Assembly (NCBI GenBank): GCA_964549305.1
Contig: CAZJVM010000088.1
Coordinates: 1-9,285 of the forward strand
DNA from: an uncultured bacterium
GTDB lineage: Bacteria; Schekmanbacteria; GWA2-38-11; J061
Reading direction: 5' to 3'
Length of the DNA: 9,285 bases
The position numbers and the translations under genes were made by a program. The notes beneath the pieces are model-generated. The model saw nothing but the letters and a program-made list of their open reading frames with translations. It had not been told where the DNA came from and did not search any database. Shown piece after piece: positions 1,312 to 9,139 of this stretch. The first letter of the stretch is position 1, and each line of letters opens with the position of its first letter.

Positions 1312-1743
1312 TCAGGATAAGTAACCCCACACTGTCAAAGCGGCAAAACATATAACCCCCACTATTCCGAGAAAAACCGCGACAGGACGGCGTTTGGGAT
1401 TCCTTTCAGGATTCTTGTCTATGAAAGGGAAGAATATGAGAAGTGCAAAAACCACTCCCTGACCTAAAACTCCCAATGCCTTGGGCGCCCATTGCCCAAG
1501 AAAATCAAGATATTCCGCGACCTTCAGAAACTGATAAGCTGCAAGAAAATACCATTCCGGTTTTATATGCTCAGGCGTAGTAAAAGGGTCGGCAGGCGGT
1601 TCCATGGGAGCAGGAGACAATGTCGCAAGGGTAATGAGCCCGCCAAAAACTATAAATGCTACAATAACTTCCTTTAACAGATGGTTGGGGAAAAAAGGTA
1701 TTCCTTTTTCCTTTTCATTTGTATTACCGTTTTTTTCATTCAT
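1312..1743 (-). CDS. petD: Rieske/cytochrome b complex subunit IV (C-terminal half of a split cytochrome b, PetD-like)
   Basis: MEPPADPFTTPEHIKPEWYF carries the Qo-site PEWY motif and resembles PetD EPADPFATPLEILPEWY. Also FFPNHLLKE and FFPFIDKNPERNPKRRP motifs, three hydrophobic helices, and a strong RBS. Confidence 0.92.
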   Translation of the reverse strand: MNEKNGNTNEKEKGIPFFPNHLLKEVIVAFIVFGGLITLATLSPAPMEPPADPFTTPEHIKPEWYFLAAYQFLKVAEYLDFLGQWAPKALGVLGQGVVFALLIFFPFIDKNPERNPKRRPVAVFLGIVGVICFAALTVWGYLS

Positions 1744-1800: not shown

Positions 1801-2523
1801 TTACAGTGGTCCTGAAATACCCTGTTTTCTTATCATCAAAAAATGCCCTATGAGAAAAGCGGCGATGCTTGCCGGCAGAATCAAAACGTGTACGGCAAAA
1901 AACCTCGTGAGGGTCGCCTGAGTGACATCAGTGCCGCCTCTTATGAGCATCTTTAAAAGATCGCCTGCAATAGGCACTGCGCTGGGAATTTCTGTTCCAA
2001 CAGTCGTTGCCCAGTATGAAATCTGATTCCACGGAAGAAGATAACCCGTAAACCCGAATCCGAGAGTCAGAAGCAGAAGCACGATTCCCGTGACCCAGTT
2101 AAAGTCTCTCGGAGCTTTATAGGCACCGTAAAAGAAAACTCTTAGCATATGCAGGAATACGAAAACAGTCATCAGGTTTGCCGCCCAATGATGTATTCCT
2201 CTCATTAACCATCCGAAAGGAACATTGTTTGTAATATGAACAACACTCTTATATGCCGCTGCAGTCGTGGGTTCGTAATACATCAGCAAAAGAACACCGG
2301 TAAATGCCTGAACTATAAAGAGCAAAAATGTTATACCGCCAAAACAAAAAGTCCAGTTAACGTGGTCGCCTACGGGTTTTTTTAGGTTTTTCTCAAGCGC
2401 ATCTCTAATGCTCAGTCTTTCATCGAGAGGTCCGTAAACAAAGCCTGTCAATGTAAGCAGATTTAAAATTTCCCTGAAACTCCCCCGCTTTTCTACATCT
2501 TTGTTATTTTCTTTATCACCCAT
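1801..2523 (-). CDS. petB: Cytochrome b6-type subunit (N-terminal half of a split cytochrome b) with heme ci-binding Cys
   Basis: HVNWTFCFGGITF (cf. b6 HVNIFYCLGGIT). Heme ligand helices IHHWAANLMTVFVFLH and AVHVLILPASIAAFLIGH (14 residues between the His). GFTGYLLPWNQISYWA motif. C-terminus IRKQGISGPL as in cytochrome b6. Confidence 0.95.
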   Translation of the reverse strand: MGDKENNKDVEKRGSFREILNLLTLTGFVYGPLDERLSIRDALEKNLKKPVGDHVNWTFCFGGITFLLFIVQAFTGVLLLMYYEPTTAAAYKSVVHITNNVPFGWLMRGIHHWAANLMTVFVFLHMLRVFFYGAYKAPRDFNWVTGIVLLLLTLGFGFTGYLLPWNQISYWATTVGTEIPSAVPIAGDLLKMLIRGGTDVTQATLTRFFAVHVLILPASIAAFLIGHFLMIRKQGISGPL

Positions 2524-2535
2524 TTTTATTTTAAG

Positions 2536-2541
2536 CCTCCT
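2536..2541 (-). promoter_or_regulatory. Shine-Dalgarno AGGAGG for cytochrome b6, overlapping the Rieske stop codon
   Basis: Minus strand reads TAG(stop)GAGG-cttaaaataaaa-ATG. Confidence 0.65.
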
Positions 2542-2983
2542 ACCCTATTTTTATAATTTCACCTTTGATTTCGGCTTTAAAGCTCTGCAAAGGTTTAGGC
2601 GCTGGTCCGCCCATAACATTTCCCCTTATATCAAACTTTGCCGCATGGCAGGGACATTCAATCAAAGTGTCTCCTTCGTGCCAGTTAACAAGGCATCCAA
2701 GGTGGGGACATACGGCAGAAAGGGCAAAAACTCCTTCGGCGGTTCTCACAACAATAGCAGGCTTACCTTCGTATCTTATCTTTCTCGATTTACCTTCAGG
2801 AATATCGGACAAGGGTATGGTAACCGACTTGCCGGATCCGCTTCCGATCGCTTTTTTTGAGGGCCACAGATATGCCATCGTTACATAAGCGGTAAGAAGT
2901 CCCCAGGACGCGACAACAAAACCGATTATGTAATCAAGAAAAGTACGTCTGCCAAAGAGACTCTCACTCTTTTCCAATTCCAT
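2540..2983 (-). CDS. petC: Rieske [2Fe-2S] protein of the Rieske/cytb complex, Tat-type anchor
   Basis: Box I CPHLGC (2693-2710), box II CPCH (within 2633-2656), GPAPKPL loop, and N-terminal GRRTFL twin-arginine motif followed by a TM helix. RBS AAGGAG at 2989-2994. Confidence 0.95.
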   Translation of the reverse strand: MELEKSESLFGRRTFLDYIIGFVVASWGLLTAYVTMAYLWPSKKAIGSGSGKSVTIPLSDIPEGKSRKIRYEGKPAIVVRTAEGVFALSAVCPHLGCLVNWHEGDTLIECPCHAAKFDIRGNVMGGPAPKPLQSFKAEIKGEIIKIG

Positions 2984-3112: not shown

Positions 3113-4903
3113 CTACAAAACCATTTTTTTCGTTTCGTTGATGTATTCTCTTGCCTTGTCGAGTAGCGAAAGCGCATAATCAACATTATGGACTCCTCTT
3201 GCATATTCAACGAATTCAATATTGTATTGCGCATCTGCAAACAATTGTTTCGCCTTTGACGGCGCGCGTTTTATGTATGGCCTTAATGCCGAAAGTTTCT
3301 TTTTGGCATCCTTGAGTTCTGCATTTACCGCGTCTTTCCATTCTCCGAGTAACTCCCTGTAATCTTCACCGTGACAATTGACACAACCTTCCTCGGAGGG
3401 TTCAAGAGTGGTGCCCTTAAATTGCGTTCCGTTAACGCCATTTTCCTTTTTAATTATGTGGCATCCTATGCAGTCAACCTGCGCTATAAACATAGGACTC
3501 GGCATATTTTCGACACCTCTTCCGCTAACTCCCATATAAAGTTCTTTCTGTCCCGAATGTTTTTTCTCATGGCAGATATTACAGCTGTAATCGAGTGGTT
3601 TTACGGTAGTTTTGACTCTATGTTTTATTTCAGTATGGCATCTCGTGCATTCAACTTTCTTGTCTGTAACATGCTTTTTATGAAGAAAAGGGAAATCATT
3701 ATATTTTTCAAGGCGTTCCGGTTCACCGTGACAGGTTATACAAAACTCTTTCGGAACTTTTCCATCGCCTTTAATGACTTCAAGGTGGCATTTCTGACAG
3801 GGGACACCCTTCCCGGCAAAATCCTGATGATTATAAGTTATACTTTCAAACTCTATATCTTGAGTTGGAATTTCATGGCAAATGGTACATCTTGCCTGCT
3901 TGTCCCACAATGTGGGGTCTTTTTCCAATCCATTGAAATGGCAGGTAAAGCAGGTTGTTTCCGTAACGGATATATGAGAACCCTGTACAATTTGTGAATG
4001 ACAGGATGTACACCTCAGTTTTATTCCTGCCCTCATTTGAGTTAAATGAGGCGTGTGATCAAAAATTATTCCTTTTTTAAATAAAACTTTACCTCGTAAA
4101 AGCCTTGTGGCATGACAACCGGAACGAAGACACGACGCATCTTCAATCTCTGCATATGGTTTGGTGCTGTATGTCCCCGTCAAAAACTTTGCAACCTGGC
4201 TTACTGCCTGAAACTTGCCTTTAATCTCCTCTCTGAAACCGGGAGGGTAATGGCAGTCAACGCAGGCAACGGATTTATGCTGTGAATTTGCCCACATATC
4301 GTAGTAGGGTTGCATTATATGGCAGGAAGCACAGAAACTGGGACTCATACTGTATTCGATGAAAGCGATATTTCCTATTATAAAAACGGCAAAAGCTATA
4401 CCAAGAGCATAATAGAAGCGTTTCCTGATATGAAGCACATCGTCTTTGCCTACGGGAAAATGAACACCTATATAGTCAAAAGCTTTCCGCCACCATTTAG
4501 CCGACTTCACGGAAGATTTAATAAGCATCTCATACATATTTATCTGGCTTTTTACTGCGGAAATCAGTTTATTGAGGTTGAGAGGTTTTACAAAATACTC
4601 GGCAGCACCTGCGGAAATAATTTCACTGGCGGAATTTTCCACAACTCCTGAAGCGACCATAATCACTCTTGAGAAAGGGCTGAGTCTGAGAATTTCCCTC
4701 AGCACTTCCATACTATTTCTGTCGGGGATGTTGTAATCAAGAATTATTACTGCGGGAGTTTCAACGGCAATCTTTTTAAGGGCATCATTTGATTTTTTGA
4801 AAACTTCGAAGGGAAGACCTTCACCGTCCAATCTCAACGAAACGCTTTTATGAAAATTTTCATCAGAATCTACAATATAAACCTTCTTCATCATCATCTC
4901 CAT
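3113..4903 (-). CDS. Fusion protein: response-regulator receiver domain + TM helix + NapC/NirT-like-anchored dodecaheme cytochrome c
   Basis: aa ~5-121 match the REC pattern (KVYIVDSD...VIILDYNIP...VIMVAS...AGAAEYFVKP). TM at ~163-182 after KRFYY. Then 11 CxxCH plus CLRSGCH (CX4CH), and a C-terminal helical region with RGVHNVDY. True start may be ATG 4891 (GGAG 6 nt upstream). Confidence 0.92.
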   Translation of the reverse strand: MEMMMKKVYIVDSDENFHKSVSLRLDGEGLPFEVFKKSNDALKKIAVETPAVIILDYNIPDRNSMEVLREILRLSPFSRVIMVASGVVENSASEIISAGAAEYFVKPLNLNKLISAVKSQINMYEMLIKSSVKSAKWWRKAFDYIGVHFPVGKDDVLHIRKRFYYALGIAFAVFIIGNIAFIEYSMSPSFCASCHIMQPYYDMWANSQHKSVACVDCHYPPGFREEIKGKFQAVSQVAKFLTGTYSTKPYAEIEDASCLRSGCHATRLLRGKVLFKKGIIFDHTPHLTQMRAGIKLRCTSCHSQIVQGSHISVTETTCFTCHFNGLEKDPTLWDKQARCTICHEIPTQDIEFESITYNHQDFAGKGVPCQKCHLEVIKGDGKVPKEFCITCHGEPERLEKYNDFPFLHKKHVTDKKVECTRCHTEIKHRVKTTVKPLDYSCNICHEKKHSGQKELYMGVSGRGVENMPSPMFIAQVDCIGCHIIKKENGVNGTQFKGTTLEPSEEGCVNCHGEDYRELLGEWKDAVNAELKDAKKKLSALRPYIKRAPSKAKQLFADAQYNIEFVEYARGVHNVDYALSLLDKAREYINETKKMVL

Positions 4904-5007: not shown

Positions 5008-5024
5008 TGCAATTATTATGCCAA
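5008..5024 (-). promoter_or_regulatory. Sigma-54 (RpoN) -24/-12 promoter
   Basis: Minus strand TTGGCATAATAATTGCA has exact GG-N10-GC spacing and is close to the consensus TGGCAC-N5-TTGCW. It lies ~105 bp upstream of the REC-cytochrome gene, in the correct orientation. Confidence 0.8.
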
Positions 5025-5207: not shown

Positions 5208-7069
5208 TTATTTTTTCACCCTTTTATTGTCTTTTGCGTCTATAATTTTATTCAATATGTCGCTAAGGTTCGTTTCTATTTCTTCCAATACCGATAATGA
5301 CTCGGGGAAATTATGTACTGTTTTTCCTTTCTTGAGAAATCTGTATGCTTCAATGCTTCTTTCATAATTTTTCTTTAAAGAAATACTCTCACGATTCTCC
5401 GCTTTTTTCCCGTTTTCGAAATCAAGGCTGATTCTCTCGATATATTTATCTATGCTGTCATTAATCGCGGATGTCTTCAGTTTCCATTCATCGAGCATTG
5501 TTTCGTAACTCTCTTCGTGGCAGTTAACGCAACGGGTTACGGCAACCGACGCGGACTCGTCTTCCGACGGCAAGTGGCAATCGGCACAGGTAATATCCGA
5601 TGCCGCCATAACATCAGGCACAATTCCCGGAGTGTATCTCTGCGACTTACCATAATAGAGGGAATATTCCTCGCTGTGACAACGTTTGCAGTCGCCGTTA
5701 TCGTCTTCGTGATGGCATGCGGCACATTCTGCCTCCGTAAGTGTGGTTTCCTTATGCTTTTCGGCTGAATGGCAATCGGTGCAGTCAAATCCGAATTCCG
5801 AAATATGCTTTTTATGGGGAAAATCATTACCCTTGTAATCAAGCACTGAATCTTTCTTTATATAATTGTGGCAAAATGTGGTGCAATAGGATGTGCTCAT
5901 TTTCAACAATTCATCCATAGAACTCTTTTTTCCGGTGCCTTTCAAAACACTGTCCGCAACCCTGTTAACCTCTGAAAGAATTTTTACGGAATATTCCAGA
6001 TTGTGAATTCCCTTTGAGCGCTCGAGAAAATCAATATTAAAAGAGGCATCGTCGAAATCCTTCCGGGCACCATCTTTTGATTTTATTCTTTTTGAAGCAA
6101 GATTTAAACGTTTCTCAGAGTATGAAACAAGTTCATTGATATTTTTTTCCCAAGCCCTCAACATCAAGTCATAACCCTTGTCGTGACAGGCAAGGCAGGA
6201 TTTTTCATTTGCCTCTGCCATCGCCTCTCCGAGAATATGCTTTCCCTTTACAAAGTGAACTTCCGTATGACAACCGTCGCAGGAAACCTGTGCCGCAAAC
6301 ATTCGGCTTGGGGTGTTTTCTACCCCTTTTGCCATAACGCCCATATATAATTCCTTCTGACCTCCATGAAGCTGTTTGTGGCATCCGTCACATTTAACTT
6401 CCAGGGGTCTTGCCATCTTCACATTACCATGCTCTATTGTTTCGTGGCAGTAAAAACAGTCAATTCCCTTGCCCGATACGTGCTTGTCGTGAATCAGCTT
6501 GTGGTCGTCAAATTTTTCCATCCTTTCCGGATGGCAGGAATAACATCTGTTTTTGTTAACTTTTCCATCTCCGTTAACAACCTTAGTATGACATCTGCTG
6601 CATTCGATTCCCGTTTCAATGTATTCGGAGAGATTTACGGAATAACCTCCGTGTTCAACCTCACCCTCGGGCACGCCGTGGCAGGAAGGGCATCCTGTAA
6701 ATGCCTTGTCTTCCGGCATTCCCTTGAAATGGCAAAGGAAACAGGTTTCCTCCGTAACATCCACATGACTGCCCTGGACAATCTGGGAATGACAGCTCGA
6801 GCACCTGAGCATTTTCCCTCTCAGAAGCCGTCCCATATGCTTTGCGTGGTCGAAATTTATTTTTCTCTNNNNNNNNNNNNNNNNNNNNNNNNNNNNNNNN
6901 NNNNNNNNNNNNNNNNNNNNNNNNNNNNNNNNNNNNNNNNNNNNNNNNNNNNNNNNNNNNNNNNNNNNCTTGTACAGAAAGAAGGGTTTTGGAAATTTCT
7001 GTAAAACAATCCAATTGAAACAATGAGGACGAGAAATATGACTGCCGAAATAATAGCGCTTTTCTTCAT
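5208..7069 (-). CDS. Large membrane-anchored multiheme cytochrome c (15 visible heme motifs, ~18 inferred), interrupted by the assembly gap
   Basis: The real N-terminus is the 6857..7069 frame (MKKSAIISAVIFLVLIVSIGLFYRNFQNPSFCT..., ATGA overlap with the upstream stop). It continues after the gap in the 5208 frame (RKINFDHAKH...). 14 CxxCH plus CTTFCH are visible, and it is a clear paralog of the 3113..4903 cytochrome domain. Confidence 0.88.
6869..6968. other. Scaffold gap (100 N placeholder)
   Basis: Exactly 100 N. The reading frame shifts across it, so the placeholder length is not the true length. Confidence 0.97.
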
Positions 7070-8055
7070 TTTTTATCCGATTCATCCTTTCCGTTACCTT
7101 TGTTGCGCTTCACCATTATTTCCTCATATTCGAGAGGGTGCTCTTCAATCATATCTTCCTTCGATATTTTTCCGTTCCACCACACCCAGCTCATGGGAAA
7201 TACTTTTGGGTTAAAATGGACATTGTAAAAATGCCATATAAGGATTGCCAGAGTGCAAAGCAGCCCTTCGTCGCTGTGCGCTTCCTTTGATATGTCAACA
7301 ACAACTTTACCTAACAAATTTATCGATTGAACTTCAAACCACATCAAAAAACCTGACCCAATCATTATTAGGCAACCCCAGTAAACCGCCCAGTAGTCAA
7401 ACTTTTCTATATAGGAAAAGCGCCCGAATTTCGGCTTCTCGTCGGTTTTGCCGAAAAAGTACTTAATCATCTGTATTACATCAAAAAGGTCTTTTGGCAT
7501 TGGTATGAGCTCGATAAAATCACTTCTTCCCTGCCGCGTAAAGGGTGTGTAGATAAGGCAATGGTACAAAAACATAACGACAAGGCCTGTCGCGCCTATT
7601 CTGTGCGCGAAGGTAATGGTCTTCATCCCGCCTATTAAATTTATAAAGAAAGCGGCAGGCCCCGTATAATAGAATTTTTCAGGTATCCCTGTCACAATAA
7701 GGATGATACAGCTTGTAAAAAGCAATATATGCTGGAGACGGAAGTTAATACCGAATCTGATAAAAAAATCTTCTTCCTTTTCCTCTGAAATTTTTTCATC
7801 TTTTCCCGGTTCAGGAGAAACTTCTTTTTTCGCGGACTCCTTTTCCGCCTTCTCAAGATAATCGAGGATTATTTTGTCTTTCGCTTCCACATAGTCTTCA
7901 AGTATACGTGACGCGAGTTGCTCAAGTTCCTCCTGTTTCAAACCATTGCCGTGCTTCTCCTTAAGTTCCTTGATGACCTGGTCTTTTATCGTTTTCCTGA
8001 AAGCATCAGGTTCATTGCCATGGGAATTATCATCACTTCTTTTTCCGTCATCCAT
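7066..8055 (-). CDS. Diheme cytochrome b of the FdnI/HyaC (CbcB/CbcL b-domain-like) family with a charged N-terminal extension
   Basis: RFGINFRLQHILL...TGIP, FAHRIGA, FLYH, KPKFGRFSYIEKFDYWAVYWG, EAHSDEG...IWHFYNVHFNP...EEHPLEY. Start moved to ATG 8055, which overlaps the upstream gene end by 8 bp and has GGAG/AGGGA upstream. The ORF track start at 8097 is less likely. Confidence 0.88.
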   Translation of the reverse strand: MDDGKRSDDNSHGNEPDAFRKTIKDQVIKELKEKHGNGLKQEELEQLASRILEDYVEAKDKIILDYLEKAEKESAKKEVSPEPGKDEKISEEKEEDFFIRFGINFRLQHILLFTSCIILIVTGIPEKFYYTGPAAFFINLIGGMKTITFAHRIGATGLVVMFLYHCLIYTPFTRQGRSDFIELIPMPKDLFDVIQMIKYFFGKTDEKPKFGRFSYIEKFDYWAVYWGCLIMIGSGFLMWFEVQSINLLGKVVVDISKEAHSDEGLLCTLAILIWHFYNVHFNPKVFPMSWVWWNGKISKEDMIEEHPLEYEEIMVKRNKGNGKDESDKK

Positions 8056-9139
8056 TTCTTCCCTGCTCCCTTTTTTTGAGGCGTTTCCTGAGGTCAAGGA
8101 TAATATGTACTATCAAAGCCAGCATTACCGCTATTGTAAGATATTTAAACGACTGAGCCACATAATAAACAATACCTGACTCCTTCTTTTTGGGGTTAAT
8201 ATGCATCTTTCCCTTTGCAAAATTTATATTCGCTCCCGGATGACATTTACCGCAGGTCTTTGGAATATTGTTCTTGTTCACCATTGACTGCGGATCGCTT
8301 GAAGGCCTTATGTCGTGATATCCGTGACAGCTTGAACAGTTTGCCGCAGTCTTGACGCCAAATTCGTTTGCTATTCCGTGAAAACTTTCCGAATAGGTTT
8401 CAACCTGTTCGGTGGAAACTCCATACTTTTCCATAATTTGCATTCTTTCGTGGCATTCGGAACAGGTCTGTTTTATATGACTTGCAAATACTGTTGACCT
8501 GGGGTCTTCGTGTGAAAAAATGTTATGCTCGCCGTGGCAGTTCGTACATACAGGAACATCGGGATTCCCTTCTTTAAAATCCTTGCCGTGAATGGAATTC
8601 GAATAATCAACGTATTCCTTGAGGTGGCATTTGCCGCAAGTCTTGGGGATATTCTCACGCGCAACCGTTGATGTTCCGTTTTCGTGCTTATAAATATTGT
8701 GAGTCCCGTGGCAATCCTGGCAAATAGGCGCAGATGTGACTCCCGATAAAAGGGCTTTTCCGTGAACGCTGTTTGAATACTCGCTGTATTTCTCACTCTG
8801 CGGCGCACCCGAAGGGTTACCTATAAAATGACATCTCTCGGCGCAGTTCACTATGCTTATGCTGTTTCTGTGAGGTATGGAAAGGACATCGGAGTGGCAG
8901 TCGGTGCAGGTTTTTTCACTGTGAACGGACTTTCGAAACTTCTCTATATCCACGTAAAGGTTTACAATCCTTCCCGTTTTAAGGGGATTGGAAAACCCCT
9001 TTTTCCCGTGGCATACAAGACATTTTATTTCATCATGTTGCGCAAAGGCATAAGATGAAACAAAAACCATTACAGCCAAACAAAGAAGATTTACGTAAAA
9101 TATTTTTTTTACAGAGTTAGAACCAACCATTTTTCTCAT
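8048..9139 (-). CDS. Nonaheme cytochrome c, signal peptide + C-terminal TM anchor (CbcA/CbcL c-domain-like)
   Basis: Signal peptide ending YAFA. Eight CxxCH (CLVCH, CTDCH, CQDCH, CGKCH, CTNCH, CSECH, CSSCH, CGKCH) plus CAERCH. Recurrent SxHG...CxxCHGxHxI units. C-terminal helix YLTIAVMLALIVHIILDLRKR. Confidence 0.92.
   Translation of the reverse strand: MRKMVGSNSVKKIFYVNLLCLAVMVFVSSYAFAQHDEIKCLVCHGKKGFSNPLKTGRIVNLYVDIEKFRKSVHSEKTCTDCHSDVLSIPHRNSISIVNCAERCHFIGNPSGAPQSEKYSEYSNSVHGKALLSGVTSAPICQDCHGTHNIYKHENGTSTVARENIPKTCGKCHLKEYVDYSNSIHGKDFKEGNPDVPVCTNCHGEHNIFSHEDPRSTVFASHIKQTCSECHERMQIMEKYGVSTEQVETYSESFHGIANEFGVKTAANCSSCHGYHDIRPSSDPQSMVNKNNIPKTCGKCHPGANINFAKGKMHINPKKKESGIVYYVAQSFKYLTIAVMLALIVHIILDLRKRLKKREQGRNG

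Follow-up and report, generated by a model that had tools for sequence, protein, structure and literature searches.

Quinol dehydrogenases of the NrfH/NapC/CymA type (NrfH of Desulfovibrio vulgaris; PDB 2J7A, 2VR0) begin with a single N-terminal membrane helix, which is followed by a CXXCHXM heme 1 and by heme 2. In NrfH the methionine of CXXCHXM is a ligand of heme 1, which, together with the membrane helix, flanks the quinol site, according to excerpts of the source (10.1101/2023.05.03.539133). We report on a relative of these proteins encoded in contig CAZJVM010000088.1 of an uncultured bacterium of the phylum Schekmanbacteria; its product, termed below the receiver-cytochrome, carries a response-regulator receiver (REC) domain in front of the membrane helix and 12 heme motifs behind it. 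The entire contig of 9285 bases (C88; the genome of 2.94 Mb is in 169 contigs) constitutes the window analysed here, and all of its long open reading frames (ORFs) are on the minus strand.

NrfH has ∼160 residues, four hemes and a short cytoplasmic tail, whereas the receiver-cytochrome has 12 hemes, an OcwA-like extension and 160 residues of receiver plus linker. An NrfH orthologue it is not: the TIGR03153 model gave 63 bits against an equivalog cut-off of 134, and 12 hemes in 596 residues compare with the tetra- or pentaheme proteins of ∼160–400 residues. The profile of its family matched D. vulgaris NrfH (2j7a_C) with E 2.3e-13 in an alignment spanning the membrane helix, heme 1 and heme 2; also, NapC/NirT (PF03264) was found at residues 172–248 (44.7 bits vs cut-off 24.1), along with several multiheme families. 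The CXXCHXM first heme was present in all 61 aligned family members and in 118 of the 120 best hits.

Over the C-terminal half, the family profile matched structure 6i5b with E 1.2e-23 (E 6e-10 for the single sequence); the search listing, a partial source, connects this structure with OcwA, a nine-heme reductase from Thermincola potens. NrfA chains gave a weak match to the profile (E ∼3e-4), in the C-terminal module only. This module (residues 373–588) is homologous to OcwA (PDB 6I5B) and NrfA, with a shared GVHN(V/Y)D motif and long terminal helices; OcwA, however, is a cell-surface reductase that has neither a membrane quinol module nor a receiver. The fold relatives of the cytochrome body came from sequence profiles; a Foldseek search with the whole structural model returned receiver structures only. 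The body is best described as two joined modules, an NrfH-like quinol module and an OcwA/NrfA-like multiheme one, and it would be expected to oxidise menaquinol at heme 1.

A further system to compare is ImcH of Geobacter sulfurreducens, likewise a multiheme cytochrome of the inner membrane with NapC/NirT relationship, believed to be a menaquinol oxidase and found as a dimer in detergent. Excerpts of its description give it three membrane helices, a CX3CH first motif and about seven hemes, and they mention no receiver; the receiver-cytochrome, with one helix, CXXCHXM and 12 motifs, was therefore not assigned to ImcH. For the receiver, the systems to compare are the NtrC/DctD/NtrC1-type regulators, in which a linker continues helix alpha5 and governs the dimerisation of the output domain. 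These regulators act through a cytoplasmic AAA+ ATPase, whereas here the output lies across the membrane.

The original prediction, made from the letters of the window, had read a single uninterrupted ORF as a CheY-like receiver, a linker of ∼40 residues, a basic patch with a membrane helix and 12 heme motifs, and all of these were recovered (Table 1). A script counted 11 CXXCH motifs and one CX4CH (C258–H264), so that one of the 12 is not CXXCH. Only one hydrophobic stretch was found (residues 163–187 by script), with four Lys/Arg on its N-terminal side and none on its C-terminal side. Pfam placed Response_reg (PF00072) over the full length of the profile (positions 1–111 of 111; E 1.2e-14, 54.9 bits vs cut-off 30.2). 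In the AlphaFold2 (AF2) model, built on 61 aligned sequences, the receiver has the (beta-alpha)5 fold with five strand-helix units and a predicted local distance difference test score (pLDDT) of 94–97; the cytochrome part was less confident, as expected without hemes. Foldseek found the receiver part to resemble solved receivers, with target-normalised TM-scores (TMt) of ∼0.9 and root mean square deviations of 1.3–1.6 Å.

The best sequence matches of the receiver were NtrC-type (NtrC 1dc7, E 3e-11; NCBIfam ntrC, E 7.7e-13), and in the alignment to NtrC residues D56, D14 and K106 correspond to D54, D12 and K104. Seven residues, D12, D14, E15, D56, Y103, K106 and P107, are identical in all eight receiver-bearing sequences; among them D56 is the phosphoacceptor-position Asp ending strand 3, D14 a metal-binding Asp, K106-P107 the Lys-Pro that follows strand 5, and Y103 an aromatic switch residue. 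The eight sequences represent two families of the phylum that are only ∼46% identical in this region; retention of Asp56, Asp14, Lys106-Pro107 and Tyr103 across such a distance argues for a phospho-site that works. As to the start of the protein, the fourth or fifth ATG of the ORF (4894 or 4891) is probably the true one, because relatives begin at MKK and GGAG lies just ahead of these ATGs.

A receiver and a cytochrome in one frame could be two genes joined by misassembly or by sequencing error, and a short contig from an assembly in many pieces, with a run of N in the neighbouring gene, might invite such a view. However, the same single frame with a conserved linker was present in all five genomes of the phylum (four genera, two families), each having a receiver-less paralog in the same genome. 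Seven further 90%-identity clusters, 57–82% identical, carried PF00072 together with the cytochrome families in a collection of 5.8 billion clusters, which makes eight such clusters in total; two of them are named at NCBI, ‘response regulator’ and ‘hypothetical protein’, each assigned to Candidatus Schekmanbacteria. In three public runs, contigs span the junction between receiver and helix (4302–4643, ∼97% alike; 4425–4592 and 4385–4583, both identical) with no joint or indel. The chimera considered along with the original prediction is thus refuted as far as sequence data go, and we regard an artefact as extremely improbable. As a separate observation, a related strain in one public run differs at window positions 3351–3354, where, at low depth, a one-base insertion and a compensating one-base deletion lie 3 nt apart.

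The fusion is rare. An exhaustive HMMER search with residues 1–195 against 1.84 billion 50%-identity representatives found one protein with receiver, linker and helix (P0005; E 5.9e-49, query 4–195 on protein 1–192); all other listed hits were ordinary receiver proteins. A word-based search with the receiver region alone, a method of limited sensitivity, found three fusion proteins and four receiver-kinase proteins, and the cluster search of a protein atlas gave only stand-alone receiver clusters (score 0.82). Of the 120 best relatives found with the full-length protein, eight had a receiver (the window's own counted), five had a degenerate receiver and one was an N-terminally truncated fragment (P0009). 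In the other 106 the first heme motif was within the first 16–101 residues or was missing, leaving a short cytoplasmic tail only. This supports the suggestion made at the outset that the receiver is an add-on, the cytochrome body being a widespread one which normally starts near its membrane helix.

No description of a receiver joined to a multiheme or NapC/NirT cytochrome came up in full-text literature searches; excerpts of a survey of Desulfuromonadia cytochromes and of a survey of quinol oxidases do not mention receivers. The protein is already in public databases, labelled simply ‘response regulator’. In the literature searched we thus met no characterised protein with a receiver, a membrane helix and a multiheme cytochrome in this order, in line with the statement that accompanied the prediction; the modules are known, their combination is undescribed there, and it is rare yet fixed in a phylum.

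Attachment of c-type hemes takes place on the outer side of the cytoplasmic membrane, and receivers function within the cell, so that any coupling between the two has to pass through the single helix. From the chemistry of heme attachment and the positive-inside rule, periplasmic hemes and a cytoplasmic receiver are expected; the opposite-side placement proposed earlier is supported by the order of domains as well. In the AF2 model the last helix of the receiver continues to residue 144, then forms a short hairpin and enters the membrane helix. Heptad-register hydrophobicity in the eight receiver-bearing sequences revealed a 3.5-residue, heptad-like periodicity of the linker helix (residues 110–144). 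The linker and the juxtamembrane region are conserved among receiver-bearing relatives. In alignment A1 (16 rows) G146 is invariant, with P150 and R162 nearly so; in alignment A2 (61 rows) G146 and R162 are both nearly invariant (≥90%). The juxtamembrane motif itself (W-R/K-R/K ... IG-I/V-H-x-P ... D..H...R) is kept family-wide, including in cytochromes without a receiver.

We tentatively favour a reading in which phosphorylation of the receiver changes its packing and thereby tunes quinol oxidation or the assembly of this respiratory branch; we consider this quite possible, though short of probable. A histidine kinase would phosphorylate Asp56, the candidate being a heme-c sensor kinase encoded upstream in the same gene cluster. 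The phosphorylated receiver would change, probably in dimer packing along the alpha5 linker, and the change might reach the membrane helix lining the quinol site by way of the linker helix and the juxtamembrane motif. A respiratory branch could then be switched on or off faster than transcription can do it.

Metal- and nitrogen-oxide-respiring bacteria choose respiratory branches by redox potential. To our knowledge, the known controls of such branches are either transcriptional or intrinsic to the cytochromes. A phosphorylation switch, if true, would be a direct post-translational link from two-component signalling to electron transport and an example of inside-out signalling via a single membrane helix; with one polypeptide, one helix and a defined phospho-site, it would make a compact test system. 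The presence of the gene in every sampled genome of the phylum, at the likely head of a Rieske/b6 operon in a very large cytochrome cluster, suggests importance for respiration.

Several observations weigh against a phosphorylation switch. The original prediction had pointed to D12, D14, D56 and K106 in the receiver; these are present, with P107, and are the same in all eight sequences, but two other positions depart from the expected pattern. Ser13 aligns to NtrC D11, the first of the metal-binding acidic pair that follows strand 1, and is variable in relatives, D12 being one position earlier; Ala84 aligns to NtrC T82, the conserved Thr at the end of strand 4, with S85 next to it, so that the conserved Thr/Ser is missing from that place. 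Position 84 is Ala or Val in four of the eight receiver-bearing sequences, the window's included (Val in one relative), while the other family of the phylum retains the switch Thr. No kinase gene is present within the window, and the cluster's heme-c kinase is a candidate partner by its neighbourhood only. The idea that the receiver is a copy of the one in the sigma-54 regulator neighbouring that kinase was rejected: the best in-genome matches were 32% identical and on other contigs, and the regulator, on contig C42, was absent from the 15 in-genome receiver matches at E < 1e-3. We know of no NrfH-type protein in which a signal is transferred through a single helix to the quinol site. Furthermore, the cytochrome family is large (2016 proteins at E < 1e-3 among 8000 candidates scored) and most of it is without a receiver; in the five degenerate receivers Glu replaces Asp56 and Glu/Arg replace D12/S13, with Lys-Pro retained. 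Given this receiver-less majority and the Glu56 lineage, the cytochrome body would therefore work without phospho-control.

Some of the same facts would fit a receiver that acts as a constitutive dimerisation or docking pseudo-receiver, stabilising the cytochrome or tethering it to a partner in the cytoplasm or membrane, without phospho-signalling. The replacement of the switch Thr in half of the sequences, the variable first acidic residue and the lack of a cognate kinase assignable from sequence are all in its favour, and so is the related lineage with Glu at position 56. Degenerate receivers do not reach the Pfam cut-off (three of the five give E 0.027 to 1.3e-4, the other two being without a listed REC match) yet are recognisably receivers, aligning to the true ones over 110 columns (hhalign probability 83%, E 8.8e-6). 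Still, we hold such a purely structural role to be unlikely, as the phospho-site residues kept in eight of eight sequences, across two families so far apart, would be unexpected if phosphorylation had been given up.

The degenerate-receiver lineage comes from metagenome-assembled genomes, two of them labelled Deltaproteobacteria; a word-based search of limited sensitivity with its N-terminal 200 residues matched only four clusters. In the one locus examined (L015 7037–13423) the genes for heme attachment, ResB and CcsA, precede the cytochrome gene, which a gene for a HAMP-HisKA kinase adjoins in convergent orientation; there were no Rieske/b genes within 10 kb. A quick maximum-likelihood tree of the cytochrome bodies was made from 61 of the 120 hits and two paralogs, with the 16-heme long forms and 59 hits left out. 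In this tree the true-receiver group formed one clade (Shimodaira–Hasegawa-like approximate likelihood ratio test (SH-aLRT) support 99) and the degenerate group a separate one (support 100); both were inside one 30-row clade (support 97) and were not sisters. One gain of the receiver with subsequent losses and two separate gains would both be possible histories. One could speculate that a two-component switch acting across the membrane on a quinol dehydrogenase is one case of a wider, undescribed grafting of cytoplasmic sensor domains (receiver, degenerate receiver) onto the N-terminal ends of NrfH-like 12-heme cytochromes, which would gate single branches post-translationally; this generalisation appears to us somewhat doubtful.

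Table 1. Coordinates of the receiver-cytochrome, its predicted parts, the other genes of the window and related elements elsewhere (window positions unless a contig or locus is named)
Feature	Coordinates	Strand	Details
Complete ORF (receiver, linker, one membrane helix, 12-heme cytochrome)	3113..4903	-	596 amino acids, uninterrupted
Receiver (REC) domain, residues 8–118	4550..4882	-	PF00072, AF2, Foldseek, alignment to NtrC 1dc7
Codon of D56 at the phosphoacceptor position	4736-4738	-	
Receiver helix alpha5 extended into long linker helix, residues 110–144	4472..4576	-	AF2 secondary structure
Predicted cytoplasmic juxtamembrane motif WWRK..IG(I/V)HFP..K.D..H...R, residues 137–162	4418..4495	-	
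Single membrane helix, about residues 161–185	4349..4423	-	Hydrophobicity script, AF2
First heme motif CASCHIM (CXXCHXM), NrfH-type heme 1 adjoining membrane	4313..4333	-	C191–M197
Predicted periplasmic 12-heme domain, residues 186–596	3116..4348	-	
OcwA/NrfA-like C-terminal module, residues 373–588	3140-3787	-	
Rieske iron-sulfur protein	2540..2983	-	PF00355 E 9e-16; 129 nt downstream of the receiver-cytochrome gene
Cytochrome b6	1801..2523	-	PF00033 E 1.5e-61; NCBIfam cytochrome b6 model 279 bits
Cytochrome b C-terminal part (subunit IV-like)	1312..1743	-	PF00032 E 8.5e-19
Multiheme cytochrome c, runs off contig end	1..1305	-	Hydrophobic stretch close to where the part read ends
Paralogous cytochrome without receiver	5208..7069	-	Broken by 100-N gap 6869-6968
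Cytochrome b561/FdnI-like membrane protein	7066..8097	-	PF01292 E 6e-9
Multiheme cytochrome c with C-terminal membrane helix	8048..9139	-	
Sigma-54-type -24/-12 promoter element TGGCAT-N5-TTGC	5009..5023	-	∼106 nt upstream of the ORF's first ATG
Sigma-54-type elements in relatives	L002 3381-3395; L003 3377-3391; L004 3572-3586; L005 3370-3384		
Sensor kinase / sigma-54 regulator, own genome	C42:5565-7688 / C42:4198-5568	-	
Sensor kinase / sigma-54 regulator, relative	L012 10049-12157 / 8646-10037		

In the direction of transcription the genes of the window are the cytochrome at 8048–9139, the b561/FdnI-like protein, the paralog, the receiver-cytochrome, Rieske, b6, the subunit IV-like protein and the multiheme cytochrome at the contig end, the last being likely the c subunit of the Rieske/b complex. 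An AT-rich gap of 304 nt ahead of the receiver-cytochrome gene holds the sigma-54-type element, which is the sole match in the window at ≤1 mismatch (mean of 0.3 in shuffled sequences). Elements of this type were found upstream of the orthologous gene in all five genomes, perfect in three. Because this element is conserved and there is no terminator-like site on the coding strand between the receiver-cytochrome and Rieske genes, the former is likely the first gene of a sigma-54-dependent Rieske/b6 operon; its predicted place at the head of a Rieske/cytb operon is thus strengthened. A second perfect element in one of the relatives (G004; L011 6320–6334) precedes a different operon, which adjoins another sigma-54 regulator.

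On the long contigs of two relatives (G004, G001) the first genes of the cluster encode a sensor kinase plus a sigma-54 response regulator; after these come a CbcL-like fusion, more cytochromes, the paralog, the receiver-cytochrome with the Rieske/b6 set and a Psr-like molybdoenzyme set. The equivalent upstream genes of the window's own genome are at the start of contig C42, which, judged by gene order, would abut the window. The cluster kinase has two membrane helices flanking a periplasmic domain with a single CXXCH, then PAS and the kinase core, and is likely a heme-c redox or ligand sensor; it is full-length in three of the five genomes and partial at a contig end in a fourth. In Elusimicrobia a member of the cytochrome family directly follows a CbcL-like gene, and in two loci the same Rieske/b6/subunit IV/multiheme set comes next.

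Such a neighbourhood would also suit signalling in the opposite direction: the redox state of the hemes could alter the gain or loss of phosphate by the receiver, or the docking of a kinase, making the protein a redox-dependent phosphate sink or co-sensor that determines the amount of phosphate passed to the cluster's sigma-54 regulator. With a kinase and a sigma-54 regulator of its own in the cluster, and with the gene behind a sigma-54-type element, a feedback loop is plausible; the HAMP-HisKA kinase beside the cytochrome of the single degenerate-receiver locus points the same way, although it was seen in that one locus only. On the other hand, the body has retained every feature of a functional NrfH-type electron-transfer protein and belongs to a large family mostly without a signalling domain; also, the kinase of the locus already has a periplasmic heme-c domain, so that a second sensor is not obviously needed. 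We consider outside-in sensing quite unlikely, and keep the phosphorylation switch as the preferred reading.

The neighbouring paralog had been described as having the same cytochrome body but starting directly at the membrane helix. The start is as described (ATG 7069, MKKSAIISAV...), but the body is a longer form with 16 CXXCH and one CX4CH, only 40–45% identical to the receiver-cytochrome, and its gene is broken by the N gap. Adjacency of the fusion and the paralog was seen in G000, G001 and G004. The run of 100 N shifts the frame of the paralog; as ∼75 codons separate the flanking residues in a genome of the same genus (L008), the run stands for a gap of unknown size and not for 100 real bases.

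Taken from its first start codon, the b561-like ORF shares its first 50 nt with the end of the cytochrome gene that precedes it and has a charged, Lys/Glu-rich N-terminal extension of ∼110 residues ahead of the membrane domain. The CbcL-like fusion upstream in the cluster (own genome, C42:1849-3783, minus strand; relative, L012 6241–8244) combines 11 CXXCH with a cytochrome b561 domain. Together with the further b561-like protein and the two NrfH-like cytochromes, it raises the number of putative quinol-linked modules in the cluster to four or more, the Rieske/b6 complex not counted.

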